From Christensenellaceae bacterium (GTDB taxonomy: Bacteria > Bacillota > Clostridia > Christensenellales > DTU072): a stretch of 64,000 bases of DNA. The notes under the pieces are model-generated. The model saw nothing but the letters and a program-made list of their open reading frames with translations, was not told the origin of the DNA and searched no databases. Numbering within the stretch: the stretch's first letter is position 1; each line of letters starts with the position of its first letter. Positions 22,762-51,751 of the stretch are shown here, piece by piece. The translations under genes and the position numbers were made by a program. The stretch covers positions 10,392 to 74,391 of the forward strand of contig JAIRMA010000039.1 of assembly GCA_031259085.1 (NCBI GenBank). The letters run 5' to 3'.

Positions 22762-24228
22762 TCATTCATAAATTTCGTCATTTTCATCACCTTTTGCGAT
22801 TGGCAACTCTATATAAAATTTACTCCCGGCACCTATTGAGCTATCTACACCATAAATAGCACCAGGATGCAAAGTCATAACATTTTTTACAATAGATAAG
22901 CCCAAACCTGTGCCGACTACACCTCTAATATGATTATTATCTGATTTATAATATCTGTCCCAAATATGTGAGATCTTGTCAACATCAATGCCAATTCCGT
23001 GATCAATTACTTCAATCCTAACATTGTTATCCCTAGTTATTGCCCTGACAATAACTAATTTGTCTTCGCCTACATAATTTATAGCATTACTCAAGAGGTT
23101 ATATATAACTTGTGATATTTTTAGTTCATCAGCATAGACCCACAACGAATCATCACTTTCAAGCTTAATAGAATATCCCATTCTAGATAAGAGTGCAGAA
23201 TGCCGCTTGACAATCTCGTTTAACAAGGCTATTATATCAAATGTTGTGAAATTAAGAACAAGATCCCCAGATTGCATACGTGACAGATCAAGCATGTCGT
23301 TTACTAGATTTGTTAATCTCTCTGTTTCATCCACAATTATTTGTAAATTTTCAGGAGTGACTTCCTCAGGGATATCTAGCATCATCTCTGTATAACCTTT
23401 CATAAGAGTTAGAGGTGTTCTAAGATCATGTGACACATTTGCAAGTAACTCACGGCGCAAATGCTCCACAACAGAGATCTGTTTGGATGCATAATTTAAT
23501 GCATCAGTCAAGGCTATAACTTCCTTGAACCCATCACCTTTAAAAACTACGTCAGCATCGCCACTAGCCATATCCATAGCGGATGTAGTCAATGATTCGA
23601 TCGGTTTTGCTACTTTTTTTGTTAAGAAAATGGTTATGGTTAAAGTTAAAAAAACAATCCCGCAAGAAATTACTAACGCCGTGACCACTGCAACGCTAAA
23701 AAGCGAAGGCATAGGCGTGACCGAGCTTTCAGTAATAATTGCTAATTCTTCATTTGCTGAGTTTTTAATTATTTTAGCATATATTAAATTTTCTACACCC
23801 ACTTCTGTTGATAAGCTTGAATCGTTAAGTCCGTTAACTGCTAGACTGTCTGACTGGATAAAATATAAATATGATCCGTCATTTGATTTAGCTTCATTAT
23901 AATAACTTAAATATTCAGAATCAGACAGCGCGCCCAAAATAGACGGTTGCCTTAAATATTTATGGATAACAGCCCCAGTGTCGCTGATTATAACAATGCT
24001 CATGTCCTCTCTATAGGACATGACCTCGATATATGAATCGAGTTCTGGGTTGTCAATAATTGATGTTATTGTATCAGTATTTTGCTGGACGTCACTAGTT
24101 TTAATAGTTCTATAAAAGGTATTAAGCATTCCTATCTGGAAAAACCATAATACGCCTAAGACAATTATAGAAAATATTGCTAAACTAAAAAATATACTCC
24201 ACTTAAGTGGTAATCGGTAAAGGCTCAA
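22762..24228 (-). CDS. Sensor histidine kinase (two TM, HAMP, HisKA, HATPase_c)
   Basis: H-box LLANVSHDLRTPLT, N-box LLSNAINY and G-boxes DHGIGI / GTGLGLSIV. Overlaps the RR gene by 26 nt. Confidence 0.9.
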   Translation of the reverse strand: MSLYRLPLKWSIFFSLAIFSIIVLGVLWFFQIGMLNTFYRTIKTSDVQQNTDTITSIIDNPELDSYIEVMSYREDMSIVIISDTGAVIHKYLRQPSILGALSDSEYLSYYNEAKSNDGSYLYFIQSDSLAVNGLNDSSLSTEVGVENLIYAKIIKNSANEELAIITESSVTPMPSLFSVAVVTALVISCGIVFLTLTITIFLTKKVAKPIESLTTSAMDMASGDADVVFKGDGFKEVIALTDALNYASKQISVVEHLRRELLANVSHDLRTPLTLMKGYTEMMLDIPEEVTPENLQIIVDETERLTNLVNDMLDLSRMQSGDLVLNFTTFDIIALLNEIVKRHSALLSRMGYSIKLESDDSLWVYADELKISQVIYNLLSNAINYVGEDKLVIVRAITRDNNVRIEVIDHGIGIDVDKISHIWDRYYKSDNNHIRGVVGTGLGLSIVKNVMTLHPGAIYGVDSSIGAGSKFYIELPIAKGDENDEIYE

Positions 24229-24880
24229 ATCGATACCCCAATCCTCTTAAAGTCACTATGTACGATCCACAAACGCCTAAATCCTTTCTTAATACTTTGA
24301 TATGCGTATCAATTGTTCTATCATCACCATAGTAATCAAATCCCCATATCTTGTTTAAAAGAAGATGTCTTGATAAAGCAAGGCCTTTGTTATTTATCAT
24401 AAAAAACAACAACTCATATTCTTTGGGGCTTAAATCAACGCGCTCTCCTTCTATCCATACTAATCGTGCATTGAAATCCACTTTTAGATTTTTCGCCTCA
24501 TAAATAGAATCCGAGCTTTTTTGTCCACGACTAAGAATCGCGTTAATTCTTAGCATTAGCTCTTTTCCAGAAAATGGTTTTATTACATAATCATCGGCCC
24601 CAGATTCAAAACCATGAATTTTATTATATTCTTCATCACGTGCTGACAACATGATTACAGGGACAGGAGAAGTTTTTCTTATTTCTTTAGTCGCTGAAAA
24701 ACCATCCAACACTGGCATCATTATGTCCATAACGATGATATCAGGCTCAGAAATTTCCGCCCTTCTTATGGCGTCCTCACCGTCAACAGCCTCAATAACT
24801 TCAAAGCCAGCGCTCTCGCCATACTTGCGTACTAAATTACGAATTTGTATCTCATCATCAACTATAAGGATCTTCTGCAT
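24203..24880 (-). CDS. OmpR-family response regulator
   Basis: Receiver domain (ILIVDDE..., MDIMMPVLDG) plus a winged-helix C-terminus (TLRGLGYRF). AGGAG SD lies 5 nt before ATG 24880. Confidence 0.9.
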   Translation of the reverse strand: MQKILIVDDEIQIRNLVRKYGESAGFEVIEAVDGEDAIRRAEISEPDIIVMDIMMPVLDGFSATKEIRKTSPVPVIMLSARDEEYNKIHGFESGADDYVIKPFSGKELMLRINAILSRGQKSSDSIYEAKNLKVDFNARLVWIEGERVDLSPKEYELLFFMINNKGLALSRHLLLNKIWGFDYYGDDRTIDTHIKVLRKDLGVCGSYIVTLRGLGYRFEPLPITT

Positions 24881-24999
24881 AATTGCTCCTAACAAATATT
24901 TAACTAGTAGTTACCTAACATACAATTTTCTTTACTTCTTATTATTATAACACTAAACGCAAAACTTAACATTAATTTTTTGCATCATATTGTATAATG

Positions 25000-26286: not shown

Positions 26287-27915
26287 CTATAACTGACCTC
26301 TTTCTTCTTCCTCTGGCAAGTTAACTTCTTCTATTGAGGTTATAAACGTATCTGAGGCTGACAATTGAATCGCAACTTTACTTGATACTAACTCCTCAAA
26401 AGACTTTCCTGCTCCCTCATTATATAAATCATAAAAATTCTTGCTCGTGTCATCCATTCCAGTCGTTGCTTCATTGATGATTTTAGCAATATCTGAATGA
26501 GCTATGCCTAGTAACGTAGTAAGATTCTCTATTGAATAGGTGTATCGCAACTTGTTTTGATCAGAAGCAGATATCGCACCTAAAATATAAACAACACTCC
26601 TATTAAATAGGGACGCATCAGGTTGATTGGGGCTTAGTTCTAAAAGATCCTCTATTACTTTAGTAAGATCAAAATGACACTTTAAATTCACTACAGTATT
26701 GTCATTACCTAAATGATTAAACCAGAGCACACCATCCTCTAAATAAATAGAGAGTCTATTAGAATTTTTGATGTTATCGTATATATAAATAGCTGCCTTT
26801 GTCTTATTTACGTCTTCCGAATTATAATCAATTTCTGCAATAAAATCGTATTTTCTTGTTGTAGATTCAGCGAGATAATAGAAATTGAGTGTTATTCGCA
26901 AAGGGTTCTCATCATAACGTCTAAATGAGCCAAGATCTGCATTAGCAAAAAGATTGTTAATCAATTGATTAGAGCTTTTGAAATCAACAACTTGAAATGA
27001 GCCTTCATATGGAATACCACCAAAAACTGTGTTAGCATGTGTCGGGCTTGATGAAACTTCTAATTTCACTTTCATATCACTTAGTCTGCCAGATTTAAAT
27101 GTGTTTTGCATGCCTTCTATTGTTGTGCATTCAACAGTTACATACATTGGTGGTAATCCTGTGCTTGAAATATCACTATTAGTAACACCAAGCATATTGG
27201 TTAAAAAGAAGTTTAAATCTGATGAGTAACTAGTTAATTGGCTACCAGGCAATTTCATGTTAGATATCAATGATTTCAAAGTCTCAGCTAAATCAATATT
27301 CACTAAGAAATGTTTAGTGTATGTGCTGTTTTCTTTTTTATACTCATACTTTATCGTTGTATCGCTTTTTAGCTTAATTATATCTGTTAATGAAATAGTG
27401 CTATCTAAAATAGTAACTGGCGCTAATATATTCATAGTATCAATTGAGCACGGCACTTTTAGTTTTGTGTTGCCTATTCTCAGATATAACATAGGCTCTG
27501 TATCACTATTCACGTGGTATATGCCTAAAACTAAATTCTCTTTTTCTTTATCATAGATTTCACATAATACAGAGTTATCGTTGATCTGCGTCTCAGAGTA
27601 ATTAACTTTCAATACAAAAACATACTGAACAGTTCCTAATACAATAGGTGCCTCTGCAGACAGAGAGCTTGAACTTGCCGATGAATCTCTCTGTTGACTC
27701 ACTGGTTTTAAAGTATTGAATAAGCCATACAATAACTCATCTGTAGCGTTTTGTACTGTTAAATCAGCCTTTGTAAATCCTTTAGTATAAAAAGTGTCTA
27801 CAACTGTATTGGGAGTCTTGGGTACTGTATTATCTTCACAAGCAGTAATTAAAACACCAAAGATCAAAATAAGGCCTACTATCATTGCAATCTTAAAAAG
27901 AAAATTCTTTTTCAT
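26287..27915 (-). CDS. Large lipoprotein of unknown function (542 aa)
   Basis: AGGAG SD, and a signal peptide with lipobox LITAC. Confidence 0.7.
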   Translation of the reverse strand: MKKNFLFKIAMIVGLILIFGVLITACEDNTVPKTPNTVVDTFYTKGFTKADLTVQNATDELLYGLFNTLKPVSQQRDSSASSSSLSAEAPIVLGTVQYVFVLKVNYSETQINDNSVLCEIYDKEKENLVLGIYHVNSDTEPMLYLRIGNTKLKVPCSIDTMNILAPVTILDSTISLTDIIKLKSDTTIKYEYKKENSTYTKHFLVNIDLAETLKSLISNMKLPGSQLTSYSSDLNFFLTNMLGVTNSDISSTGLPPMYVTVECTTIEGMQNTFKSGRLSDMKVKLEVSSSPTHANTVFGGIPYEGSFQVVDFKSSNQLINNLFANADLGSFRRYDENPLRITLNFYYLAESTTRKYDFIAEIDYNSEDVNKTKAAIYIYDNIKNSNRLSIYLEDGVLWFNHLGNDNTVVNLKCHFDLTKVIEDLLELSPNQPDASLFNRSVVYILGAISASDQNKLRYTYSIENLTTLLGIAHSDIAKIINEATTGMDDTSKNFYDLYNEGAGKSFEELVSSKVAIQLSASDTFITSIEEVNLPEEEERGQL

Positions 27916-29891: not shown

Positions 29892-30254
29892 TTATTCATC
29901 TTCGACAGTTATTGTAACTTCTGCGTGATATTGATTAAGGTACGTTGCTTTTACAACATAGTCTCCTGCTCTTGTAAATTGATATTTATCATCGAGCTCG
30001 AGATTAGATAAATCAATTACAATCCCAGCATTCGTAGATGACGGTGTTAAAGTTGAATCGTCTGAGAGTGTAGCCTCAAATTTAAAGCCTATGTACGAAA
30101 ACACATCGCCTACTTTAAATACGTAATCATCAAGTACCTCAATTGTAAAACCTGTTATGGTAGGACTCACTTCATTTGCCGTACAAGCTACAAAAGCGCC
30201 TGTTATTGCTACTATCGTTAGAATAAGTGCGGTTAAAATAATAACCTTTTTCAT
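29892..30254 (-). CDS. Small lipoprotein with an Ig-like beta domain
   Basis: AAGGAG SD and lipobox FVAC. The domain resembles the N-terminal repeats of 6708..7439. Confidence 0.7.
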   Translation of the reverse strand: MKKVIILTALILTIVAITGAFVACTANEVSPTITGFTIEVLDDYVFKVGDVFSYIGFKFEATLSDDSTLTPSSTNAGIVIDLSNLELDDKYQFTRAGDYVVKATYLNQYHAEVTITVEDE

Positions 30255-38480: not shown

Positions 38481-40014
38481 ATCTATAATTACTATTCTAT
38501 TCATCATTTCATCAATTGTAATTGGAATGCGCATGCTAATTTCACTACAGTTAAATGGGTATAGGGTACGAAAAAAAGCCTATTTAATACCACTTAACGT
38601 TAAACAACTAATCGAGTTTAGCTCATTACTTTTCTTAGGGCTATTAACTATATTAAGTGTTAAATTTGGAACTATCTTAACATACTCTATAACAATAACT
38701 ATAACACTATCATTAATAGTTTACTATGTGAATGATTACATTAAGCTTCGCACAAAATTCAAATTCACAGCGCGTGGGACGCGTTTTTATATATTCTATG
38801 TTTTGATATTGACTATTATGCATTTGATTATTAGTATGTTATCAGTGGAGTTAATATTCCATCGATTATTTAGTATAACACTTCTTCTAATGAGTGGATT
38901 ATTAGCAATATGTGTTAGCATGATTTTGTCACCTCTTGAGTTTTTAAATAGCCTAAAGTATATAAAGATTGCAAAAAATAAATTATTGAACCTTAATGCT
39001 ATTAAAATTGGAATAAGCGGTAGCTATGGAAAAACAAGCTGCAAAAATATATTAGGAGCGATGCTTGCAAAGAAATATAAGGTGATAAAAACTGAAGGGA
39101 ATAGAAATACTCCTATGGGAATTTGTCTCACTACTAACAATATGACAAGTGATGCGGAGGTTTTCATTGCAGAGATGGGCGCTAGAAGGCGTGGTGATAT
39201 TAAAAAACTCTGTGATATTGTAAAACCCACTTGCGCATTGCTGACAGGAATAAGTAATCAACACATGTCAGAGTTTGGTAGTCTTGAAAAAATCTACCAA
39301 ACAAAGAGTGAATTAATCAAAGCTTTGCCAAGAGATGGAATTGCTATTTTTAACGGCGATGACCCCTTAATCACAAAATTACGAAAAGAATTTACTGGTG
39401 ATTCGGTAGCAGTACATTTAAGAGATGAACAGGAAGTCTATGCAAAGAATATTAAACTTAGTACTAACGGAATAAGTTTTGAGATTTTTGGACTCTCAAC
39501 TCCATTTAAGGTGTCTACAAAACTATTAGGAAGACATAACGTGCTTAATATTTTAATGTGTTCTGTAATGGCATATAAACTAGGGATAAGCCCAAATGAA
39601 ATAGCCTCCGCGCTATCTGAATTGGAGCCCATCCCACACAGACTACAAATTATCAAAAACACAGGTGAAATAACTATTATAGATGATAGTTATAATGCAA
39701 ATATCTCTGGATCTATATTTGCATTAGAGGTCCTAAAACTCTACTCAGGGAGAAAAATCGTATTTTCACAGGGACTAGTGGAACTTGGAAAACTAAATAA
39801 TCGATATAATCGACATCTTGGGGCAGTAATTGGTAAAACAGCAGATGTCATTATCTTAACGGGGCAAAACACCAACTCATTATTAAAAGGTATTGATTCT
39901 GTTGGATTTAGTGGGACTGTATATAGATACAAATCGTTTAAAGAAGCTACAGTTAATATTAAAGAGATTCTAAAGCCTGGTGATGTACTATTAATTCAAA
40001 ATGATATTCCATAG
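38470..40014 (+). CDS. murF: MurF-like Mur ligase with a ~170-aa polytopic membrane N-terminus
   Basis: P-loop GISGSYGKTS at residues 181-190, a DDSYNAN motif and the adjacent ddl gene. Residues 1-160 form about 5 hydrophobic helices in place of the usual soluble N-domain. Confidence 0.8.
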   Translation: MIIESIITILFIISSIVIGMRMLISLQLNGYRVRKKAYLIPLNVKQLIEFSSLLFLGLLTILSVKFGTILTYSITITITLSLIVYYVNDYIKLRTKFKFTARGTRFYIFYVLILTIMHLIISMLSVELIFHRLFSITLLLMSGLLAICVSMILSPLEFLNSLKYIKIAKNKLLNLNAIKIGISGSYGKTSCKNILGAMLAKKYKVIKTEGNRNTPMGICLTTNNMTSDAEVFIAEMGARRRGDIKKLCDIVKPTCALLTGISNQHMSEFGSLEKIYQTKSELIKALPRDGIAIFNGDDPLITKLRKEFTGDSVAVHLRDEQEVYAKNIKLSTNGISFEIFGLSTPFKVSTKLLGRHNVLNILMCSVMAYKLGISPNEIASALSELEPIPHRLQIIKNTGEITIIDDSYNANISGSIFALEVLKLYSGRKIVFSQGLVELGKLNNRYNRHLGAVIGKTADVIILTGQNTNSLLKGIDSVGFSGTVYRYKSFKEATVNIKEILKPGDVLLIQNDIP

Positions 40015-40030
40015 TCTAAAGAGGTATTGC

Positions 40031-41122
40031 ATGAAAAATATTATGGTTATTTATGGTGGGGATTCAAGTGAACATGATATCTCTATAATAACAGCAGTAG
40101 AGTCTATGATGGTAGCACCTATTAAAGGCTACAGAATAATTCCAGTGTATGTTAAGAATTCGGTTTGGTACACAGGCAGATGCTTGTTTGAGATTAAAAA
40201 TTATCTCAATTTTTCACCTGCTCGCTATACAAAAGTATTACTTTTTAATAAAGCTTTATATGAGATTAAACGATCTAAAAAGCTTGTTAAATTATTTGAT
40301 ATTGATTGCGCGCTTATATTAGCACATGGTGGAGGTGGGGAAAATGGGGAATGGCAAGGTCTTTTTGATACAAATGGAATACCATACACTTCATCTAACG
40401 TGGAGGCATCCGCTATTTGTATGAATAAAAGCTATTGCAAAACATTATTAAAAAGTTGGAGAGTAAATGTAGTAGAAGGCATTACAATAAATAGTAATCC
40501 CGATCTAGATGAGATCGAAAACATTTTAAAAGAGTTCGATTTACCTGTTGTTGTAAAACCTGTGTCACAGGGAAGTAGTATCGGGATTAGTTTAGTAAAT
40601 TCAGTCGATACACTTAAAACTGCAATAAACACTGCTAGTAAATATTCGTCTAGACTATTAATTGAAAAGGGGTTGAACAATTGCTTAGAATTCAACCAAG
40701 CGGCAGTATTCTTGAGAGATGAGCTTGTATTGTCAAAAATAGAAAAACGTATGTCAAGCGGGGATATATTTACTTATAATGACAAATATCTATCAAATAA
40801 GAATTCAAGATCTGCGACTGATTTTTTGGATGATTTTGAGAATAATGAATTGAAGCTTGAGATTTCAAATATTACTAAGAGTGTTTATGTCAAATTAAAT
40901 CTGTGGGGTATCGTCCGTTTTGATTACCTTTATTCTAATAATATATTATATTTGAATGAAATAAACACTATTCCTGGCTCTTTAGCACATCATTTATTTG
41001 AAAATATGACATACCAACAATTGTTAAAATCTATTATTGATGAATCAATCAAGCGAATAATTTTTAAACCCTGTCATTTTCAATCAAATGTATTAGAAAC
41101 TTTGAACTCTATATCAAAATAA
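40031..41122 (+). CDS. ddl: D-alanine--D-alanine ligase
   Basis: AAGAGG SD lies 6 nt before ATG 40031. N-terminus VIYGGDSSEHDISI and an ATP-grasp core (VVKPVSQGSSIGIS, NEINTIPG). Confidence 0.88.
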   Translation: MKNIMVIYGGDSSEHDISIITAVESMMVAPIKGYRIIPVYVKNSVWYTGRCLFEIKNYLNFSPARYTKVLLFNKALYEIKRSKKLVKLFDIDCALILAHGGGGENGEWQGLFDTNGIPYTSSNVEASAICMNKSYCKTLLKSWRVNVVEGITINSNPDLDEIENILKEFDLPVVVKPVSQGSSIGISLVNSVDTLKTAINTASKYSSRLLIEKGLNNCLEFNQAAVFLRDELVLSKIEKRMSSGDIFTYNDKYLSNKNSRSATDFLDDFENNELKLEISNITKSVYVKLNLWGIVRFDYLYSNNILYLNEINTIPGSLAHHLFENMTYQQLLKSIIDESIKRIIFKPCHFQSNVLETLNSISK

Positions 41123-41237
41123 ATGGTTGTCTACTTTGATCAAAAATCAATTTAGTGAAGCAATACATCTGTTGTTTTTTACTTTTTATTTACTAATATC
41201 TTTTTTGAAAAAAAATTTAAAACACAGCCCATTTTGT

Positions 41238-41266
41238 TTGACAGTCTAAAATTTATATATTAAAAT
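41238..41266 (+). promoter_or_regulatory. Promoter TTGACA-17-TAAAAT for glnN
   Basis: TTGACA at 41238-41243, a 17-nt spacer, TAAAAT at 41261-41266. Confidence 0.6.
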
Positions 41267-41282
41267 AATATCATAGCAAAGC

Positions 41283-41323
41283 AAAGGCGCTGCGGCTTGT
41301 TCCGTAGCGCCTTTTTTATTTTT
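41283..41323 (+). terminator. Strong intrinsic terminator hairpin inside the glnN 5' leader
   Basis: 11-bp GC-rich stem aggcgctgcgg / ccgtagcgcct (one G-U pair) with loop cttgtt, followed by ttttttattttt. It lies between the promoter and the SD. Confidence 0.75.
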
Positions 41324-41340
41324 AATATTAAGGAGAGTGG

Positions 41341-43434
41341 ATGATGAACAAAATTCCCGATATGTTTGGTGAATTAGTTTTTGGTGAAGCAATAATGCGC
41401 GAGCGTCTACCAAAGGACACTTACAAAGCTTTGAAGAAGGCAATAGCTGAGGGTAAGTCTTTGGAATTAGATGTCGCAAACTCAATTGCAAACGCAATGA
41501 AAGATTGGGCGGTATCAAAGGGTGTAACACACTTTACACACTGGTTCCAGCCAATGACAGGTGCTACAGCAGAAAAACATGATAGTTTTATTTCGCCTAC
41601 TGCAGAGGGTAAAATTATAATGGAGTTTTCTGGTAAAGAATTAATCAAGGGTGAACCTGATGCGTCAAGTTTCCCGTCTGGTGGTATTAGAATGACATTC
41701 GAGGCGCGTGGATATACTGCATGGGATCCAACGTCATATGCCTTTATTAAAGATAACGCTCTTTGCATCCCGACTGCATTCTGTTCCTATGGTGGAGAGG
41801 CTTTAGACAAGAAAACACCGCTTTTGAGATCTATTGATGCTTTGAATAATCAGGCAATGCGAATTTTAAGACTTTTTGGTAATACTACAGCTAAAAATGT
41901 TATTTCAACAGTCGGCCCTGAGCAGGAATATTTTCTTATTAACAAAGACCTATATGAAAAACGCCGTGACCTTGTATTAACAGGTAGGACGTTATTTGGT
42001 GCAAAACCACCTAGAGGGCAAGAATTAGAAGACCATTATTTTGGTGCGATTAAATCAAGAGTCGCAGAGTACATGGCAGACCTTGATCTCGAGCTTTGGA
42101 AGCTTGGAATCCTTTCTAAGACAAAACATAACGAGGTTGCACCATCTCAACATGAGTTGGCCCCAATATATAGCACGACTAATACTGCTACTGATCATAA
42201 CCAATTGGTTATGGAATTGATGAAAAAGATTGCACCAAAGCACGGTTTAACTTGCTTATTACATGAAAAACCATTTGCAGGGATTAATGGTAGTGGCAAA
42301 CATAATAACTGGTCAATTTCTACTGATACTGGTGTTAATCTACTCGATCCTGGCTCATCTCCTGAAGAAAATGCACAATTTTTATTATTCTTAACAGCCA
42401 TACTAACTGCTGTTGATGATTATCAAGATCTTTTAAGAGCCTCCGTAGCTAGTGCTGGAAATGATCATCGTTTAGGCGCTGCAGAAGCACCTCCTGCCAT
42501 CATATCTGTTTTCTTAGGCGACATCTTAACTGATATTGTTAATAGTATTGTTGATAGTAAGAAATATAACAAAAAAGAAGACAGTTATATAGAAATTGGA
42601 GTTGGATCACTACCAAAAATTCCAAAAGATAATACTGATAGAAATAGAACATCACCATTTGCATTTACTGGTAACAAGTTTGAGTTTAGAATGCCTGGAT
42701 CAGCGTTCTCTATATCTGGACCCAATTTTGTGCTTAACACAATCGTAGCAGATGCCCTGTCTAATTTTGCAGACATATTAGAAAAAGCTAAGGACTTTAA
42801 TGCTACTTTGCAAGTTATAATAGCTGAAAATCTAACTAAACATAGACGCATAGTGTTCAATGGCAATGGTTATACGGATGAATGGGTTAAGGAAGCAACT
42901 AAGAGAGGGTTATTAAATCTAACTTCAACAATAGATGCGCTTCCAGAATTCATTGCAGATAAAAACATAAAACTTTTTGAAAAACATAAAATTTTATCTG
43001 AAATTGAAATGCGCTCGCGCTATGAGATATTAGTCGAAACCTATGTCAAGACAATAAAAATCGAAGCGTTAACAATGATTGATATAGCGCGAAAAGACAT
43101 AATTCCTGCTGGTGAAAAGTATGTTAGCTTGCTTGCAAGTACCGCTAAATCTAAGTTGGATGTAAGCAAAACATTCACTGTTGACTTAGAAAAGTCACTA
43201 ATCACTAAATTAAGTGATCTATTACTTAAAATATATACAAGAGCAGAAGGGCTCGAGGCAAAATTAACTGAAGCAGAAGAAAAAGGTGATGCTACTGCAG
43301 AAGCTCGATTCTTTAGATCGGCTATAGTACCAGCTATGTCTGAACTAAGAGAAGCAGCAGACACATTGGAAATATATACAGCAGAGAAATATTGGCCATT
43401 CCCATCTTATTCTGATCTATTGTTTTCAGTATAA
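41341..43434 (+). CDS. glnN: Glutamine synthetase type III
   Basis: About 700 aa, with a GSIII-type N-terminus (FGELVFGEAIMRERLPKDTYKALKKAI...THFTHWFQPMTG) and a catalytic core (NGSGKHNNWS). Confidence 0.9.
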   Translation: MMNKIPDMFGELVFGEAIMRERLPKDTYKALKKAIAEGKSLELDVANSIANAMKDWAVSKGVTHFTHWFQPMTGATAEKHDSFISPTAEGKIIMEFSGKELIKGEPDASSFPSGGIRMTFEARGYTAWDPTSYAFIKDNALCIPTAFCSYGGEALDKKTPLLRSIDALNNQAMRILRLFGNTTAKNVISTVGPEQEYFLINKDLYEKRRDLVLTGRTLFGAKPPRGQELEDHYFGAIKSRVAEYMADLDLELWKLGILSKTKHNEVAPSQHELAPIYSTTNTATDHNQLVMELMKKIAPKHGLTCLLHEKPFAGINGSGKHNNWSISTDTGVNLLDPGSSPEENAQFLLFLTAILTAVDDYQDLLRASVASAGNDHRLGAAEAPPAIISVFLGDILTDIVNSIVDSKKYNKKEDSYIEIGVGSLPKIPKDNTDRNRTSPFAFTGNKFEFRMPGSAFSISGPNFVLNTIVADALSNFADILEKAKDFNATLQVIIAENLTKHRRIVFNGNGYTDEWVKEATKRGLLNLTSTIDALPEFIADKNIKLFEKHKILSEIEMRSRYEILVETYVKTIKIEALTMIDIARKDIIPAGEKYVSLLASTAKSKLDVSKTFTVDLEKSLITKLSDLLLKIYTRAEGLEAKLTEAEEKGDATAEARFFRSAIVPAMSELREAADTLEIYTAEKYWPFPSYSDLLFSV

Positions 43435-43485
43435 TCAATCATAGTTAAGTAAACTTAACTTAAAACAATTTAATAGATATTCCAC

Positions 43486-43534
43486 AAGGGCGTGTGTTAT
43501 TTCGTTAATCGAAATTCGCACGCTCTTGTTGTTT
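43486..43534 (+). terminator. Long imperfect hairpin between glnN and amt (terminator or attenuator)
   Basis: Outer stem aagggcgtgtg / cgcacgctctt (two G-U pairs) enclosing inner stem atttcg / cgaaat, followed by gttgttt. Confidence 0.55.
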
Positions 43535-43566
43535 ATAAATGATTAATATTAAGGAGACATTTTTTT

Positions 43567-45303
43567 ATGCAAACTATGTTGTTGTCGGATGCGGCACTAA
43601 TGACGTTTTCTTCGACAGACACTATTTGGGTTTTGTTAGCAGCCGCTCTTGTATTCTTTATGCAAGCTGGTTTTGCAATGGTAGAAGCTGGGCTAACCCG
43701 AATAAAAAATACTGGAAATATCATTATGAAAAACCTTATGGATTTTGCCATAGGTACCATAGTATTCTGGTTATTAGGCTTTGGGTTAATGTTTGGAACT
43801 GATTTAGGTGGTTTTATGGGAACCCCTGATCTATTAGTACTACAAGGAGATTATAGCGCAGGTTATCCTTCATATGCCTTTGTAATATTCCAAACAGTAT
43901 TCTGTGCTACAGCAGCAACAATCGTGTCAGGAGCTATGGCTGAGAGGACTAAATTTATAAGTTATCTAATTTATAGCGCTATGATTTCGATGATAATTTA
44001 TCCGATTTCCGGACACTGGATATGGGGCGGCGGTTGGTTATCTGAATTAGGCTTCCACGACTTTGCAGGATCAACAGCTGTACATATGGTAGGTGGCGTA
44101 GCTGCATTAGTAGGCGCATTAGTGCTAGGTCCTAGAATTGGTAAATATGATAAAAAAGGAAAACCTAAAGCAATTTTGGGCCATAATATGGCAATTGTAG
44201 CTTTGGGTGTGTTTATACTATGGTTCTGCTGGTTTGGATTCAATGGCGGTTCTACAACAGCGGCCTCAGATGATGGCTCATTATCTACAATGGCTTTGGC
44301 ATTCGTTACAACTAACCTAGCTGCTGCAACTTCTACCCTCACTACTTTGATATTCAGCTGGATTAGATACAAAAAACCTGATGTCTCCATGACATTTAAT
44401 GGTGCATTAGCTGGCCTTGTTGCAATTACCGCTGGTGCTGACGCAGTAGATCCAGTGGGCGCGTTCTTTATCGGTTTATTAGCAGGCCTTGTGATTATCC
44501 CAGCTGTTGAATTTCTTGACAAAAAAATCAAGGTCGACGATCCGGTTGGTGCAATTGCGGTTCACGGTGTTTGCGGTGCTATGGGTACAATATTAGTTGG
44601 GCTATTCAGTACAGATGAGGGTTTGTTCTATGGTGGCGGATTTAGATTACTAGGAGTTCAAACTCTGGGTGTTGTAGTTGTAGCAGCATACGTTGCAGCA
44701 GCTATGTTAGGTATATTCTTGTTGCTTAAAAAGACAATCGGATTACGTGTGAGTAAGCAAGAAGAACTTGCAGGTCTAGATATCTCAGAACACGGTTTAG
44801 CTACAAGCTTTGCAGGATTTGCAACAGCCTCAGCTACTAGTGATGGAGTTTCGTATGTCAGCGCCCCACCTACATCTGACACAGGTGTAACTGTTGAATA
44901 CAACAATGAAGGTGGAGAAGCCGCGATTGATGACGATGTTGTCGATAAAAATAAATTTACTAAGGTTGTAATTGTATCTAATCCCTCAAAATTTGATGAT
45001 CTCAAAGTGGCTCTTAATAACATTGGGATAACTGGGATGACGGTCACAAATGTCATGGGATTCGGAATGCAAAAGGGTCATACTGAATACTACAGAGGTG
45101 CCCCCGTAGATGTTAATTTACTACCAAAATTTAAGGTTGAAATCGTCGTTTGCAAAGTACCCGTTAGAACTGTTATTGATACTACCAAGAAAGTACTATT
45201 CACTGGAAATTACGGCGATGGAAAAATATTTGTATACGACGTGACAAACGTTGTAAAAATACGAACTAATGAAGAGGGCTATGCCGCATTGCAAGATGAC
45301 TAA
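43567..45303 (+). CDS. amt: Ammonium transporter (Amt) fused to a C-terminal PII (GlnK/GlnB) domain
   Basis: Amt TM core (AGFAMVEAG, DFAGSTAVHMVGG, GVCGAMGT) followed by about 112 aa of PII (KVVIVSNPSKFDDLKVALNNIGITGMTVTNVMGFGMQKGHTEYYRG...GDGKIFVYDV). Confidence 0.9.
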   Translation: MQTMLLSDAALMTFSSTDTIWVLLAAALVFFMQAGFAMVEAGLTRIKNTGNIIMKNLMDFAIGTIVFWLLGFGLMFGTDLGGFMGTPDLLVLQGDYSAGYPSYAFVIFQTVFCATAATIVSGAMAERTKFISYLIYSAMISMIIYPISGHWIWGGGWLSELGFHDFAGSTAVHMVGGVAALVGALVLGPRIGKYDKKGKPKAILGHNMAIVALGVFILWFCWFGFNGGSTTAASDDGSLSTMALAFVTTNLAAATSTLTTLIFSWIRYKKPDVSMTFNGALAGLVAITAGADAVDPVGAFFIGLLAGLVIIPAVEFLDKKIKVDDPVGAIAVHGVCGAMGTILVGLFSTDEGLFYGGGFRLLGVQTLGVVVVAAYVAAAMLGIFLLLKKTIGLRVSKQEELAGLDISEHGLATSFAGFATASATSDGVSYVSAPPTSDTGVTVEYNNEGGEAAIDDDVVDKNKFTKVVIVSNPSKFDDLKVALNNIGITGMTVTNVMGFGMQKGHTEYYRGAPVDVNLLPKFKVEIVVCKVPVRTVIDTTKKVLFTGNYGDGKIFVYDVTNVVKIRTNEEGYAALQDD

Positions 45304-46178: not shown

Positions 46179-47105
46179 TTATATTTTTATTTCGGCTTTT
46201 CCGTAGGCGTCAATTTCGCTTATTGTCCCGCCGTCAGTTAAAACTTGCTCGCCATAGTTTTTTATGTGTGTGTCAAGTATTTCAACCCAATTCTTCATAA
46301 ACATTTGATTATGTCTTTCGGCTTGGTGTTCTGCGAAATCAAAGAAAGAGTTTACAAGTCGCCTTAAAGATTTCAACTCGGTTTCGGTTAAATAGTCTTT
46401 GGCAATCATGGCTTCATCTCTTGCTGGGTGATTACCCTTAAAAACGGTAAGTCCCATAAACGGCAATTCGGCATTTGCACGATTAAACACAATTTCACTT
46501 GCTGTATATCCTGTGGAAGCATAATGCAATTTTGCCTGCACAATTTTGAAAAATTTTACTGTTTCATCACTTTGTGGGTTATAGTCAATGCTTGTTGCAT
46601 ACAAATCAAGCACTTGGCGATACATAACTTTCTCGCTTGCCCGAATATCACGGATACGCTCTAAAAGTTCTTTCCAATACAAACCGCCACCAAGATTTTT
46701 TAATTTCTCATCGTTCATCGCAAAACCTTTCTTCATATATTCTGTTAATATATTACTTGCCCATTTGCGAAAAGCAATACCACGAGCAGAATTAACACGA
46801 TAACCAATGGCAAGTATCATATCAAGGTTATAAAAATCAACTTCGTGTGATTGCGTTTTGTCTTGCATTGCACCGTGTGGAGTGGTTGTTCGGTATTTAC
46901 GAACTACCACTTCTTTATCTAATTCGCCGTCTGCAAAAATGCGTTTAATATGTTCGCTTATATTACTTTTGCTTGATTGAAACAAATCTACAATCTTTGA
47001 CTGTGGAAGCCATACGGTTTCGCCGTCAAAAACAACCTCCACCTTTGTTTGTCCGTCAGGTGTTGTGTAAATTACAATCTCGTTTTTCTTTTCTTCTTTT
47101 TCCAT
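46179..47105 (-). CDS. rhuM: RhuM-family protein (apparently truncated at the 3' end)
   Basis: Strong resemblance to the Virulence_RhuM family (VWLPQSKIVDLFQSSKSNISEHIKRIF..., FYNLDMILAIGYRVNSARGIAFRKWA). AAGGAG SD lies 5 nt before ATG 47105. Confidence 0.85.
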   Translation of the reverse strand: MEKEEKKNEIVIYTTPDGQTKVEVVFDGETVWLPQSKIVDLFQSSKSNISEHIKRIFADGELDKEVVVRKYRTTTPHGAMQDKTQSHEVDFYNLDMILAIGYRVNSARGIAFRKWASNILTEYMKKGFAMNDEKLKNLGGGLYWKELLERIRDIRASEKVMYRQVLDLYATSIDYNPQSDETVKFFKIVQAKLHYASTGYTASEIVFNRANAELPFMGLTVFKGNHPARDEAMIAKDYLTETELKSLRRLVNSFFDFAEHQAERHNQMFMKNWVEILDTHIKNYGEQVLTDGGTISEIDAYGKAEIKI

Positions 47106-47115
47106 TTTCACTCCT

Positions 47116-49329
47116 TTATATCTTTTTGTCCAATTCTTTCCAAACGATTAGATTAGATAGGTCTTCGTCCCAAATCGTTGTATTTATTAAAAGTTCTTGG
47201 CTGTTACAATCAAAACGCACAAAACCGCCAGCAAGTAAATATATCTTGTTGCCGAATGTCGTTTTTGAGTGAGTTTTAAGATATTCCATTAAGGCAGAGA
47301 ATTTTTGAGAAGAAACAGGGTCTATATTTTGAGAAACTCCGCTACTTGTTTGTCCGCCTTTCGTTTCAATTATCCATATTTTACCTGTTATATCTATAAC
47401 GATATAATCGGGGTAAAAATGTTTTTGTTTACCACTATTTATAGAATAGACAATAGAAAAATACTCTTGATTATGTTCTCCATTTTTATACCACCAAACA
47501 ATATTTTTATTATCTTCGCACCATTTTTCAAATTTCTTTTCGGGTTCGCTCCGTTTGGCAACATTGGAAGTGTAACCTTCATAAACATTCTTTGCATAAG
47601 GCGTAATTCGTTTGTTTGTGCCATCGATAGGAAAATCATATTCCCGTGGTAGTAGCCAGAGGCTTTCATTTACCTTTGGCTGCATAATTATTTGTTGTGC
47701 GGGGTTTGGGCCGTTCATCGCATTTCTAAAATCAGTTTTCAATTTATCAAAGTTATTGATGATAAAGGCGTAAAGAAATTTATTATCAAAATTAAATAGG
47801 TTCTTCTTAAATTTTGCTTTTGCGGAAAGGTCAATAAACAATGCTCTAATGACGGTAATTGCGTCTTCGTATTTTAATGAAACGGCAGAACCGACTTCGC
47901 CAACGGCTTTATGAAATGCACGCCCGTGAATATGTGTTGAAAGTATGGCAGAACCGCTTAATGTGTTTGTATCTTTTAATTCGCTAAATACCGTTGCCGA
48001 ACCGCTCGCAGTGTTAATGTGGATATTTGCGTCAAATATATATCCGCTTGCTTCAAGTTTTGCTTTATTGCCCGTATAATCTTTCGGTTTCGTGTTGTAG
48101 GCGCTGTTAAAATAATCCGCCACCACTTCACGCACTTTTGCCCCGTCTATTGGGTTTTGAATATCGGGGTTGTATTGCTTCTTTAATGTGATTGGTTTGT
48201 GAATGGTTTTTAAGAACAATTTTCTAATTTCACCGCCGTAAATATCTTTTGAAAGCCCAGCGATAAAACCCTTATCAAAAGTATAAATATAGCAATCATC
48301 AAGTATGTCGTTGTTATAATGTTTCGCCTCGGGCATACGGCGTATTCTGCCTATTGTTTGAACTTCGAAAACTTCATCCATATTCTCACGCAGTTTCACA
48401 AGTATGCACGCTCTTGGACAATCCCAACCCGTTGCGATTGCCTGTTTGAAAATCAAAACAATGGGTGAAGCGAAATTATCTTCTATGCCGTCTTTGTTGT
48501 CGTATCGTCCGTTAAGCCAAAATGCAAGTAAGCCATTATCAACAGTTATATTTTTTGTTGCCAAAAATTTTTCAAGGTTTTGAATTAAAGCGGAAGACGG
48601 GTCGCCACTGCTGTTGTTTGGAATTTGCACACAGATTAAAGGGTTTATTCGTGTATTTAATTTCGCAAATTCGTTCACAATTCCTTGTCGTTTCGTAATA
48701 GCAAGGTTTAGCAGAATATCAAAACTGTTTGCATTGCGTTCGTCAATAACAAAACCCTGTTGCAAATCTTTATTCACAATAATTTGTTTTTTAATAAGTC
48801 CAGCACCGATAACTTCACTTTCTTCAATTTTTATCAACCGTTTGTCTTTCACATTTTTTGGTGTTGCGGAAGCATAAATCTCACAAACAGGATTAAATAA
48901 TCGTTTTATCTCGGTCGCCTTAAAAGTGTCGTTCAAATGTTGTTCGTCAATAATCAAAATAAACTTAATGCCCGAAAGCAATGCTTTTTCAATTTTATCC
49001 TGCAAGTTATCTCGTTCACTGTCGCTTATCGCAATATTACCTTTCTTTGTTATCTTTTCCCAATTTATGAATGTTGCGGAGTTCTCTTCAAAACCGCCCG
49101 TTAGAATATCATTTACTGTGTTAGTTCTAAACATAGGAAAATACTTTGCCATTTTATCTCTGCTTTGTTCAGCAAGGTCGCCTTTGCCTATTGAAAGCCA
49201 CACAAACGCATATTTTGCGTTTCGGGCAATAAATTCGTCCATAAAGTGTGCAAGAATAACGGTTTTTCCGCTTCCTGTTGGCGATTGCAAAATAATATCT
49301 TTCTCGCTCTGTTCCGCAAAAGTTATCAA
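47116..49329 (-). CDS. res: Type III restriction enzyme Res subunit (SF2 helicase + C-terminal PD-ExK nuclease); the start probably lies upstream, near 49368
   Basis: Motif I SPTGSGKT, II IIDEQH, III SAT, VI TIGRIRRMPE, and the nuclease motif YPDYIVIDITGKIWIIETKGG. The frame stays open up to 49392. Confidence 0.85.
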   Translation of the reverse strand: MITFAEQSEKDIILQSPTGSGKTVILAHFMDEFIARNAKYAFVWLSIGKGDLAEQSRDKMAKYFPMFRTNTVNDILTGGFEENSATFINWEKITKKGNIAISDSERDNLQDKIEKALLSGIKFILIIDEQHLNDTFKATEIKRLFNPVCEIYASATPKNVKDKRLIKIEESEVIGAGLIKKQIIVNKDLQQGFVIDERNANSFDILLNLAITKRQGIVNEFAKLNTRINPLICVQIPNNSSGDPSSALIQNLEKFLATKNITVDNGLLAFWLNGRYDNKDGIEDNFASPIVLIFKQAIATGWDCPRACILVKLRENMDEVFEVQTIGRIRRMPEAKHYNNDILDDCYIYTFDKGFIAGLSKDIYGGEIRKLFLKTIHKPITLKKQYNPDIQNPIDGAKVREVVADYFNSAYNTKPKDYTGNKAKLEASGYIFDANIHINTASGSATVFSELKDTNTLSGSAILSTHIHGRAFHKAVGEVGSAVSLKYEDAITVIRALFIDLSAKAKFKKNLFNFDNKFLYAFIINNFDKLKTDFRNAMNGPNPAQQIIMQPKVNESLWLLPREYDFPIDGTNKRITPYAKNVYEGYTSNVAKRSEPEKKFEKWCEDNKNIVWWYKNGEHNQEYFSIVYSINSGKQKHFYPDYIVIDITGKIWIIETKGGQTSSGVSQNIDPVSSQKFSALMEYLKTHSKTTFGNKIYLLAGGFVRFDCNSQELLINTTIWDEDLSNLIVWKELDKKI

Positions 49330-49364
49330 CTCGTTTACGGCATTAAATTGAAAATCTTTTAGTA

Positions 49365-51095
49365 TTATATTTGTTTCTCCTTGTAATAATATTCAGGGAT
49401 AACATTTATTTTAATACCGTGTTCGGTTGCCATTTGTTGTTGCAAAAGTGTCAGTGAAATATCGTGTCCTAAATAAATTGTTTTAACTTTTGCAAGTTTC
49501 TTTTCGTTCGTAAAAAATGCTTCCACTTGATTTTCATCAAGCAAAATATCAATTCGGTCATTATGGTCAAAATCAATCGCATTTTCAAGTTCCACAAGTT
49601 CCTTTATGTGAAGTAAAAGCGTATCCGCATACTCATAATAAAGTTTCTCCGTAATGGGCGTAAAGTCCACCTTGAAATATTTTAACGAACCAGCAATCCC
49701 TTTACTATATTCACTTCCGTCTTTTCGTTTGCCCGTGATGACCGTTTTAATCCGTTGATATGTTACTTCTTCACAAATATTATTTTCATTATTTGTGCAT
49801 AAAATAAACTTTCGTCTTCCGCCGTCTTCACGGTTTAATTCCAAAACTGCGTGTCCCGTTGTGCCAGACCCAGCAAAGAAATCAAGAATTATTGCCTGTT
49901 TCCTTTTGCCGACAACGGCATATAAACAATCGTAAACATTCCATAAGGATTTTGGGAAGTCAAACGGTGCGTCAGGCACAAGGTCGTTGATTATCTTCTT
50001 ACCATATTCATTGCTATCATATCGTGGGCCCTGCCAAACAGTTCTGTATGTCCCAAAATTCTTACCTATTTCAATTTCATATCTACCCTTTACAATCTTT
50101 ACTCGTAAATTCTCTTTTACCGAATCAACACTTTGTCTTGCATAACGCCATTTCCGTTCAATGCCCTGTATGTCAATGGGGTAAACATAAGTTACTCCGT
50201 CAATTACTTCATTCTGTTTCGGGTGTTTATTCATATCACTAACTACTTCACCAAAACCAATAATTTCATCTTGTGCCACTAAAATAGGATAAAAACAATT
50301 TTTTGCGTCTGTCCTTAAACTTTCACCGCCATTATCTCTTAAATTACGCCAATCAATTTCGCTATCATCAATTTTTCGTTCGCCTATTATTTTATCACCA
50401 ACAGGCACAACAAATATTGCATACTCGTGTGTATAAGAAAAATTCTTGCCTTGTATCCCACGGGGATTGTGGACAATGGAAATACAATGATATTCATAAG
50501 CCGACCCAAATATACTTTCAAGTAAAAACCCAAGTGTGTGTAATTCGTTTTCGTCAATCGCACAAATCAAAACACCCTTTTGTGTTAAAAGTTTCTTTGC
50601 AATATCAAGGCGTCTTTGCATAAGAGTAAGCCACTTACTGTGCCGAAATAAATCATTTTTGTCGGCATAGTCATTATCATATTTCCAATCTTTTGCCCCT
50701 GTGTTATACGGTGGGTCAATATAAATAATATCAATTCTGCCATTATGCGTTTTTTCTAAAAGTTTCAAAGAGGCAAGGTTATCGCCCTCAATTAAAAAAT
50801 TCATTTGCCCACCATTATCAGTAAAACGGCTTTTGTCTTCAATTAAAATTGGTTCATTCGTTTCAAGCATTTCGTCAATTTGTTCTTTATGTTCTTCAAA
50901 AACAAGCCCGTATTTTTTGCTTTTAATTTCTTTTTCTAACTCGGCAACAAAAGAAAGTAAACGGGCGGTGTTTTCGTCCTGTGGAGCGTTCTTGATGAAC
51001 GCCTTTATTTCATTCGCCTTTGCGACAAGGGTTTCTCTCTTTTGCTTGGAAATATTCATATTTGGAATTATATCATAAATCATAAGAATCAGCAA
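49365..51095 (-). CDS. mod: Type III R-M Mod subunit (beta-class N6-adenine/N4-cytosine DNA methyltransferase)
   Basis: Motif IV IIYIDPPYNTG precedes motif I DFFAGSGTTGHA. The start is uncertain (TTG 51095, ATG 51083 or ATG 51059). Confidence 0.88.
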   Translation of the reverse strand: MLILMIYDIIPNMNISKQKRETLVAKANEIKAFIKNAPQDENTARLLSFVAELEKEIKSKKYGLVFEEHKEQIDEMLETNEPILIEDKSRFTDNGGQMNFLIEGDNLASLKLLEKTHNGRIDIIYIDPPYNTGAKDWKYDNDYADKNDLFRHSKWLTLMQRRLDIAKKLLTQKGVLICAIDENELHTLGFLLESIFGSAYEYHCISIVHNPRGIQGKNFSYTHEYAIFVVPVGDKIIGERKIDDSEIDWRNLRDNGGESLRTDAKNCFYPILVAQDEIIGFGEVVSDMNKHPKQNEVIDGVTYVYPIDIQGIERKWRYARQSVDSVKENLRVKIVKGRYEIEIGKNFGTYRTVWQGPRYDSNEYGKKIINDLVPDAPFDFPKSLWNVYDCLYAVVGKRKQAIILDFFAGSGTTGHAVLELNREDGGRRKFILCTNNENNICEEVTYQRIKTVITGKRKDGSEYSKGIAGSLKYFKVDFTPITEKLYYEYADTLLLHIKELVELENAIDFDHNDRIDILLDENQVEAFFTNEKKLAKVKTIYLGHDISLTLLQQQMATEHGIKINVIPEYYYKEKQI

Positions 51096-51098
51096 TCA

Positions 51099-51420
51099 TT
51101 ATCGGCTCCACGGCATATTAAAGTCATCTGCAATCGGCACGAGTTCAATTTGTTTAACTTCTTGTCCGCTTTGTTTTTCGTAAATCAAATTGCCGTTGCT
51201 ATCCATTCGGGCAATATTTTATATCAAACTCAAACTTATAACTTTTTATTTTTTATGTAACACTCAATAAATTACCACCGCAATAGTAAATGTTTATATA
51301 ACCGTTTCTTATTTCAATCTGTAAATCATTATGTGCTTAGATAATAGCGAGTAATTCTTTTAATTCGTCACTCGTCAAATTGTCAATAAACTTTTGGCTG
51401 ATTTTTCTAATGTGATTCAT
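51099..51420 (-). pseudogene. Decayed gene remnant (two in-frame TAA stops plus one frameshift)
   Basis: Reads MNHIRKISQKFIDNLTSDELKELLAII*AHNDLQIEIRNGYINIYYCGGNLLSVT*KIKSYKFEFDIKYCPNG*. After a frame shift it continues MDSNGNLIYEKQSGQEVKQIELVPIADDFNMPWSR**. Confidence 0.4.
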
Positions 51421-51574
51421 ATAAATGAGTATAACATAAAACACTCAAATCACTATTTTGTTTTGGTGCTGTTACAGAAAATCGTCCTTTGCTTATTCCT
51501 TGCCTTACAATCCAATACCATTCAATTCTTTTTCTTTTGGGTTTTTTTGTGCCACAAACGCTAGCCACACATTT

Positions 51575-51606
51575 AAAAAAGATATAGTAAAAAACTATAT
51601 CTTTTT
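51575..51606 (-). terminator. Terminator downstream of tRNA-Tyr
   Basis: Stem gatatagt / actatatc extended by A/T pairs, with loop aaaaa and T6 following on the minus strand. Confidence 0.7.
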
Positions 51607-51665
51607 CGGTGTGAACGCCTACGGCTAAACACTCGCTTTCGCTCGTGTTCAAATGCATTCGTGTT

Positions 51666-51751
51666 TGGTGGGAGGAGGTGGATTCGAACCACCGAAGTTT
51701 TCCAACAACAGATTTACAGTCTGGCCCCTTTAGCCACTCGGGAATCCTCCC
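51666..51751 (-). tRNA. tRNA-Tyr (anticodon GTA), class II with a long variable arm, CCA encoded
   Basis: The reverse complement folds by hand: acceptor GGGAGGA/TCCTCCC, anticodon loop CTGTAAA, variable stem GTT-GGAA-AAC, T-arm GGTGG-TTCGAAT-CCACC, then ACCA. Confidence 0.9.

Follow-up and report, generated by a model that had tools for sequence, protein, structure and literature searches.

A putative single-hexaloop, ANTAR-type attenuator in the leader of the type III glutamine synthetase gene of a Christensenellaceae bacterium

The DNA considered here is a stretch of 64,000 nucleotides (hereafter the window) from contig JAIRMA010000039.1 of a Christensenellaceae bacterium (assembly GCA_031259085.1). 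It contains glnN, a gene of type III glutamine synthetase, which is followed by amt-PII, a gene of an ammonium transporter, and preceded by the gene of D-Ala-D-Ala ligase (ddl), whose stop codon is at 41122. The subject of the analysis is the short leader of glnN, in which a terminator follows the promoter almost immediately, and the spacer between glnN and amt-PII, which has a similar layout. An earlier note, made from the sequence alone, had suggested that the expression of glnN requires regulated read-through of this terminator. The features of the locus, in window positions, are the following.

41238..41243, + strand: -35 hexamer TTGACA of the glnN promoter (11 of 12 consensus positions together with the -10 hexamer at a 17-nt spacer; perfect in nearly all related copies)
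41261..41266, + strand: -10 hexamer TAAAAT (consensus scan)
41280..41291, + strand: putative antiterminator hairpin AGC[AAAGGC]GCU, ANTAR P2-type (sequence, covariation and likeness to published hairpins)
41283..41314, + strand: intrinsic terminator hairpin of 13 bp (8 G-C, 4 A-U, 1 G-U), loop CUUGUU
41315..41324, + strand: U-tract of the glnN terminator, TTTATTTTTA
41330..41337, + strand: Shine-Dalgarno sequence of glnN, AAGGAGAG
41341..43434, + strand: glnN, type III glutamine synthetase (GSIII_N, E = 6.6e-81)
43483..43494, + strand: second putative antiterminator hairpin CAC[AAGGGC]GUG, hexaloop 43486-43491 (glnN-amt spacer sequence)
43484..43529, + strand: terminator of the glnN-amt spacer, a 13-bp lower stem with an inner 6-bp hairpin (folding)
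43530..43537, + strand: interrupted U-rich tail TGTTTATA, weaker than the glnN tail
43567..45303, + strand: amt-PII, ammonium transporter fused to a P-II domain (Pfam annotation)

The promoter TTGACA-17-TAAAAT, which the earlier note had placed at 41238-41266, is indeed the top promoter-like site of the region 39500-44500. A generic promoter scan of this region returned 22 sites against 20.6 expected, which is not above chance, and the reality of the glnN promoter therefore rests on its conservation. GlnN relatives were collected from 80 genomes (80 loci), and a promoter with at least 10 of 12 consensus positions was present upstream of 54 of the 70 related copies of the element described below. 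The distance from the -10 box to the foot of the hexaloop hairpin in these 54 copies has a median of 11 nt and falls between 5 and 19 nt in 52 of them. Transcription of glnN probably starts near 41273.

The G+C-rich hairpin that follows, located correctly before but with a slightly low count of 11 bp, consists of 13 bp and is directly followed by a U-tract, as expected of an intrinsic terminator. Folded alone, it has an energy of -22.9 kcal/mol, and the fold of the 94-nt leader has a z-score of -2.5 relative to shuffled sequences. Translation may start at the ATG at 41341 or at a second in-frame ATG at 41344, which is the start in the public gene call; the proximity of the Shine-Dalgarno sequence and the start codon to the hairpin thus holds as described earlier. 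The ATG follows the hairpin after only 26 nt, and this space is too small for another promoter, again in agreement with the earlier proposal. A search of the whole window with Rfam 15 at the gathering score returned two tRNAs alone, with no riboswitch, T-box or leader family, and at E up to 10 the interval 41000-41500 gave just look-alikes of small-RNA families, all far under their gathering thresholds. A reading of the leader as a known riboswitch or T-box, which had already been doubted for the shortness of the 5' leader, was dropped for want of an Rfam match. For antitermination the short 5' leader is no obstacle, since the putative antiterminator lies inside the terminator arm and not upstream of it.

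This overlooked element is formed by the 5' arm of the terminator, which is self-complementary and can refold as a small hexaloop hairpin with a closing C-G pair. The hexaloop AAAGGC occupies 41283-41288, with A1 at 41283 and G4 at 41286, on an AGC/GCU stem. Both the hexaloop and the 3' strand of the small hairpin are part of the terminator 5' arm, so that 9 of the 12 hairpin nucleotides belong to the terminator stem and the two folds are mutually exclusive; with the small hairpin forced, the fold has -5.9 kcal/mol against -22.9 for the terminator. What defines an RNA site of ANTAR proteins is precisely this combination, a C-G pair that closes a hexaloop carrying A1 and G4 (Stewart and van Tilbeurgh 2012; Ramesh 2012). 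Selection of RNA ligands in vitro (SELEX) with NasR recovered the C:G closing pair, A1 and G4 (Goodson 2020), and the C:G closing pair is needed in eutP (Ramesh 2012). The ANTAR seed alignment includes C-AAAGGC-G itself, in P2 of Enterococcus faecalis eutA (UUAAGC-AAAGGC-GCUUAA) and in P1 of Listeria eutG (GUAC-AAAGGC-GUAC), while P2 of Klebsiella nasF is GGAU-AAAGGC-GUCC (Ramesh 2012 Figs S1, S2). A covariance model of the hairpin only, from which the window and its three close relatives had been left out, found its best window match in the glnN hairpin (16.9 bits, E about 0.05), but this model is too small to decide, and significance rests on context and conservation.

The glnN hexaloop hairpin bears a tandem 5-nt duplication, AGCAA AGCAA (41275-41284), at its 5' foot. 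The duplication does not occur in three relatives (L001, L038 and L062) and cuts the stem in the window from 4-5 bp to 3 bp, which may weaken antitermination in this strain.

A second copy, also missed before, is present ahead of amt-PII. The glnN-amt spacer resembles the glnN leader in having a long G+C-rich hairpin, then TTAATATTAAGGAGA and then an ATG. The hexaloop AAGGGC (43486-43491) is carried on a CAC/GUG stem that overlaps the 5' arm of the spacer terminator, and the segment folds to -28.9 kcal/mol with the terminator versus -7.6 with the small hairpin forced. The best promoter match upstream of amt-PII has 8 of 12 consensus positions, so that this gene has no promoter of its own and is therefore likely to be read from the glnN promoter through a second checkpoint. 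The CACAARGGCGTG core is invariant at the orthologous glnN-amt site in L001, L038 and L062 while its flanks vary, and it is this invariance, along with the terminator context, that supports the second copy.

Two sequence similarities of the spacer were recorded separately. The same 15-mer, TTAATATTAAGGAGA, which includes the ribosome-binding site, stands 3' of both terminators (41322-41336 and 43543-43557); both chance in AT-rich DNA and a common translation-initiation context are possible explanations. A block AACAATTTAAT (43464-43474) is kept in the window, L001, L038 and partly L062, while the surrounding spacer varies.

The closest relatives of GlnN are found in termite-gut Christensenellaceae metagenome-assembled genomes (MAGs), with 94, 88 and 82% identity, and their leaders are short and have the same perfect TTGACA promoter. 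In these leaders the base of the terminator (GCAAAGGCGC...GCGCCTTTT) is conserved, while the distal stem changes by compensation. Relatives were also searched for the same hairpin upstream of nitrogen genes, as had been suggested in the earlier note. A search with the pattern CAARGGCG detected the core upstream of glnN in most loci and again after glnN, and the module was found upstream of glnN in about 50 of the 80 related loci, as well as upstream of glnA, asnA, asnB and gltB.

The two flanks of C-AAAGGC-G, of 3-7 nt each, can pair with one another, yet differ among copies (ACAGC/GCUGU, AAGAC/GUCUU, UACAC/GUGUA, GAAC/GUUC, AAAGC/GCUUU, ACGC/GCGU, CAC/GUG). Among 65 distinct copies, 75.6% of the small-stem cells are paired versus 56.9% in shuffles, and the covariation score of the small stem is 0.574 versus 0.212, a value reached in 0 of 500 shuffles; in slid registers the score is at most 0.17. 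The copy filter demanded the first three stem pairs, leaving the fourth and fifth free of selection, and these unselected pairs are formed in 59 and 46 of the 65 copies, each with five pair types. The closing C-G is present in all 65. Since a terminator does not need a self-complementary 5' arm, this property is independent evidence for the alternative fold.

The loop is still more constant: A1, A2 and G4 are invariant in 64 family copies, loop variants included, and all six loop bases are nearly fixed across the family. The variants AAAGAC, AATGGC, AACGGC, AAAGGT and AAGGGT, found in other glnN loci, fit the published consensus of ANTAR loops, AAHGRH and AAHGDV (Ramesh 2012). At least three of the six loop bases are paired in 59 of the 71 family terminators, 57 of which pair at least five. 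The small hairpin alone has a family median of -4.3 kcal/mol, and once it is complete, a median of 13 nt is transcribed before the 3' arm supplies its first competing base.

Several unusual copies were met during this survey. In a Lachnospiraceae MAG, two whole hexaloop-terminator modules stand in tandem before one glnN (L057:3843 and L057:3932), an arrangement which recalls tandem riboswitches, known to sharpen the response. A promoter-hexaloop-terminator module with the loops AACGGC, AAAGGT and AAGGGT precedes glnN in L026, L050 and L069, MAGs labelled Spirochaetales, Anaeroplasmataceae and Elusimicrobiaceae; either the design reaches beyond Clostridia or glnN has travelled together with its leader. 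Many spurious matches to the CAAGGGCG pattern were produced by a collagen-like repeat of GDKGAT units in a Christensenellaceae MAG (L010:1-260).

The genes located 3' of motif copies include glnN, amt-PII, the type I glutamine synthetase gene glnA, asnA, asnB and the large-subunit gene gltB, as well as genes of a class-II amidotransferase, glmS, pyrG and one ANTAR regulator gene. The latter, in L046, encodes a protein of 194 aa with an ANTAR domain (Pfam, E = 7e-14) and a weak receiver-like N-terminus. Genes of ANTAR proteins are found no more than 4 kb from glnN in 16 of the 80 related loci, Christensenella among them, often as the second gene of an operon that begins with type I glnA and is divergent from glnN. 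Five of these 16 loci were missed by the strict pattern at the glnN leader and bear loop variants of the motif. The NitR-like ANTAR regulators are the following.

L046:6205-6786, - strand: NitR-like ANTAR regulator
L014:1678-2241, - strand: NitR-like ANTAR regulator
L035:152-712, - strand: NitR-like ANTAR regulator
13 other loci: NitR-like ANTAR regulators

Compared with CheY, the NitR-like proteins have S/x at D12/D13 and N at D57 and retain K109-P, and the Pfam receiver match of the L046 protein is under the threshold. They look like pseudo-receivers, as in AmiR. The lack of a phospho-acceptor pocket suggests that they are controlled via a partner protein and not by phosphorylation. It may be speculated that the partner transmitting the nitrogen signal is the type I glutamine synthetase or P-II; the former is a candidate because the glnA-ANTAR operon is frequent.

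Thus, it is quite probable that the glnN leader is a protein-dependent attenuator of the ANTAR type belonging to a nitrogen regulon, and that glnN and amt-PII form one unit with two gated terminators. The covarying hexaloop, the nitrogen regulon and the 16 ANTAR-linked loci point to regulated read-through, as had been proposed, and suggest the class of the regulator. According to this model, glnN and amt-PII would be a single transcription unit with a strong, probably constitutive sigma-70-type promoter. By default, the long terminator hairpin would form and the polymerase would release an RNA of about 50 nt. Under nitrogen limitation, a NitR-type ANTAR-domain RNA-binding protein, encoded elsewhere in the genome, would bind the hexaloop hairpin (closing C-G, loop A-A-R-G-G-C) once the terminator arm leaves the polymerase. 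The clamped small hairpin would remove the lower half of the terminator stem, the remaining short distal hairpin would be separated from the U-tract, and the polymerase would enter glnN, whereas an equivalent clamp event at 43483-43494 would allow it to continue into amt-PII. The sequence elements, the exclusive folds, the covariation of the small stem, the association with nitrogen genes and the presence of ANTAR genes close to glnN in relatives are the observed parts of the model, from which ANTAR binding and a nitrogen response at glnN may be inferred. The model would explain how glnN and amt are expressed despite a strong terminator right after the promoter, and it predicts two successive nitrogen checkpoints in one operon. 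It also points to the question of how a NitR-type regulator without phospho-acceptor residues senses nitrogen status.

Several observations weigh against this interpretation. No ANTAR gene was detected in the 64-kb window by tblastn or by a six-frame search with a hidden Markov model (best E = 0.13 over 30 aa), nor at a distance of up to 4 kb from glnN in the three closest relatives. Pfam analysis of nearly all open reading frames (ORFs) of the window gave no PRD/CAT, HutP-type or other recognisable RNA-binding regulator either, so the earlier statement that the window holds no candidate regulator gene stands; an ANTAR gene is presumably present elsewhere in this genome. Enrichment of the core octamer in the window is not significant (4 observed vs 1.68 expected), and the two further CAAAGGCG matches lie within genes of the RhuM / type III restriction-modification island described below and are not regulatory elements. 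Both small hairpins of the window have 3-bp stems with energies of -1.1 (glnN) and -0.4 (amt) kcal/mol, the amt copy is within the noise of the hairpin-only model at 9.6 bits, and its U-tract is interrupted, though the stem is strong. Finally, the window element has one hexaloop alone, whereas antitermination by EutV requires both P1 and P2 (Ramesh 2012; Walshe 2022), and the affinity of NasR for P2 alone is about 12 uM versus about 1 uM for P1P2, which is about 12-fold weaker (Goodson 2020).

The canonical ANTAR site is composed of two hexaloop hairpins, P1 and P2, of which just the 3' strand of P2 overlaps the terminator. In the family described here, a second hexaloop with A1 and G4 is no more frequent than in shuffled sequences, either within 60 nt upstream (10 of 71 copies vs 9.05) or between the hairpin and the U-tract (2 of 71 vs 2.05). 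In the 54 copies with a promoter of at least 10 of 12 positions, which ends a median of 11 nt before the hairpin foot, the hairpin stands at the very start of the RNA and leaves no room for a P1. At any moment an ANTAR dimer is in contact with a single hexaloop, P1 was termed the recruitment hairpin and the minimal binding unit was redefined as one hexaloop, single-hexaloop sites being expected mainly where no polymerase time constraint exists (Walshe 2022). Because the minimal unit is one hexaloop, the missing P1 bears on architecture and not on binding. A broader reading, to which an even chance is given, is that single-hexaloop ANTAR attenuators, whose hairpin begins the transcript and lies wholly in the terminator arm, are no degenerate matches but the standard and functional design of the nitrogen regulon in Clostridia and their neighbours. 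They would be read by a NitR-type pseudo-receiver protein that senses nitrogen through a partner, perhaps a co-transcribed type I glutamine synthetase or P-II, and P1 would be dispensable. If this is true, co-transcriptional antitermination does not need the P1 recruitment hairpin as long as the loop is optimal at all six bases.

Other explanations of the glnN leader should also be considered. A factor different from an ANTAR protein, either another RNA-binding protein or a small RNA acting in trans, might read the hairpin and open or block the terminator. In favour of such a factor, ten window ORFs have no Pfam match, and it would suit both the lack of an ANTAR gene in the window and near glnN in the three closest relatives and the lack of P1, which canonical ANTAR systems need. 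However, every base of the loop and the closing pair agrees with ANTAR sites established by experiment, the motif has a linked ANTAR gene in 16 loci, one such gene (in L046) itself stands behind a copy of the motif, and regulators are often encoded at a distance from their targets; this possibility is regarded as unlikely. An ordinary unregulated terminator, which would insulate glnN from the tsaE-to-ddl operon and damp the promoter by constant partial read-through, needs neither the invariant C-AARGGC-G core nor a compensating self-complementary 5' arm, and it would hardly precede linked nitrogen genes in many genomes with differing upstream neighbours. It is true that this is the only terminator between the ddl stop codon and glnN and so also ends upstream transcripts; nevertheless, the explanation appears quite improbable.

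The strong promoter, short transcript and strong terminator are the typical anatomy of a small-RNA gene, here of about 50 nt, and small-RNA families account for all of the weak Rfam matches, which are well below gathering thresholds. If such a free-standing gene were present, the expression of glnN would be incidental read-through, but glnN has no other promoter in the 26 nt between hairpin and ATG, the glnN-amt copy occurs without a promoter, and the sole conserved sequence is an ANTAR-type hairpin buried in the stem of the terminated RNA, which makes this explanation very improbable. Two further alternatives seem scarcely credible. The inverted repeat AAAGGCGC...GCGCCTTT, with its conserved outer halves at about +10 to +40, might be the DNA operator of a dimeric repressor just 3' of the promoter; however, the half-sites of different copies lie from about 14 to more than 40 nt apart, substitutions in the inner part are compensatory, each half is internally self-complementary, and copies also occur between genes, far from promoters. 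A very small metabolite riboswitch, for instance for glutamine, would agree with the control of glutamine-related genes, as exerted by the cyanobacterial glnA RNA, but Rfam gives no match, conservation is confined to a hairpin of 12-16 nt without a junction or pseudoknot, and the sequence of this hairpin is that of a protein-binding site.

Some other features of the window were noted. The region 46179-51751 on the - strand, directly after amt, holds a gene of the RhuM family and, next to a tRNA gene, a pair of type III restriction-modification genes, and it has the look of a small mobile or defence island. Two paralogous glycoside hydrolases of family 3 with Fn3-like domains are encoded side by side on the - strand at 17046-19517 and 19892-22354, and next after them comes a pair of a histidine kinase and an OmpR-type response regulator (22762-24895). 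Ten ORFs of 120-542 aa had no Pfam match at the thresholds used. The positions of the genes of the island and of these ORFs are as follows.

47116-49329, - strand: Res, type III restriction-modification island
49365-51095, - strand: Mod, type III restriction-modification island
51669-51751, - strand: tRNA gene next to the type III restriction-modification island
61-1176, 1215-1631, 1636-2070, 4379-4831, 6708-7439: ORFs without a Pfam match (first five)
10143-10967, 13202-14104, 26287-27915, 29892-30254, 61276-62616: ORFs without a Pfam match (other five)

Considered as an ANTAR-type attenuator, the glnN leader can be compared with several known systems. The glutamine riboswitch of cyanobacteria (glnA RNA and Downstream-peptide motifs) is likewise a cis-acting RNA located before genes of glutamine synthetase, P-II and ammonium transporters, but it binds glutamine directly by a three-stem pseudoknotted fold, and there is no sequence or structure likeness and no Rfam match here. 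The antiterminators BglG, LicT and SacY, acting on ribonucleic antiterminator (RAT) hairpins, follow the same logic, in which a protein dimer stabilises a hairpin overlapping the 5' arm of the terminator, so that the terminator stem is shortened and separated from the U-tract. These proteins differ in their unrelated fold (CAT domain), in recognising a longer RAT hairpin by internal loops in its stem and in controlling sugar genes through the phosphotransferase system.

The dual-hexaloop ANTAR systems (EutV/eut of Enterococcus and Listeria, NasR/nasF of Klebsiella, AmiR/amiE of Pseudomonas) are closer. They have the same kind of hairpin, with a stem of at least 3 bp, a closing C-G pair and an A1/G4 hexaloop that often reads AAAGGC, and are alike in the overlap and mutual exclusion with the terminator, in several checkpoints per operon and in nitrogen-related genes. 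In contrast to them, the present family has no P1, the entire hairpin lies within the terminator arm, promoter-proximal copies begin no more than about 10 nt after the predicted 5' end, and all six loop bases, beyond A1 and G4, are nearly fixed.

The regulon is of the same kind as that of NitR, glnA and gltAB in Clostridium saccharobutylicum and as that among the matches to the ANTAR RNA in Ramesh 2012 (Table S2), which in Clostridia-type genomes precede genes of glutamine synthetase, an ANTAR regulator, an ammonium transporter, glutamate synthase and asparagine synthase. In the part of Bolay 2018 that cites Stutz 2007, NitR is described as an ANTAR antiterminator inducing glutamine synthetase/glutamate synthase (GS/GOGAT) genes on nitrogen limitation, and the glnA-ANTAR operon of the relatives corresponds to the arrangement named glnA-nitR in C. 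saccharobutylicum. The window locus differs from the NitR system in that its gene encodes the type III and not the type I glutamine synthetase and that no regulator gene adjoins it. That ANTAR proteins control nitrogen assimilation genes in Clostridia is thus already known, and the glnN locus is a further case.

The unusual part is the architecture, namely one hexaloop, nested in the terminator, 5'-terminal and widespread. The matches in Ramesh 2012 were modelled as dual hairpins, and true dual sites are present in D. reducens and P. carbinolicus (Figure S2 of that work). For the glutamine synthetase and glutamate-synthase-like genes of D. hafniense (hits 057 and 095), however, the same figure gives only a good P2, GAGC-AAAGGC-GCUC, like that of the window, and their P1 is unconvincing and resembles promoter sequence. 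The single-hexaloop class was therefore already contained in earlier hit lists, although modelled as dual; no description of a single-hexaloop, terminator-nested class as such was found in the literature, coverage of which was incomplete. The family supplies over 70 natural examples of ANTAR-type attenuators that lack P1, contrary to models that hold P1 to be necessary. Walshe 2022 asked how far single-hexaloop motifs matter, and the family offers a widespread and testable co-transcriptional case.

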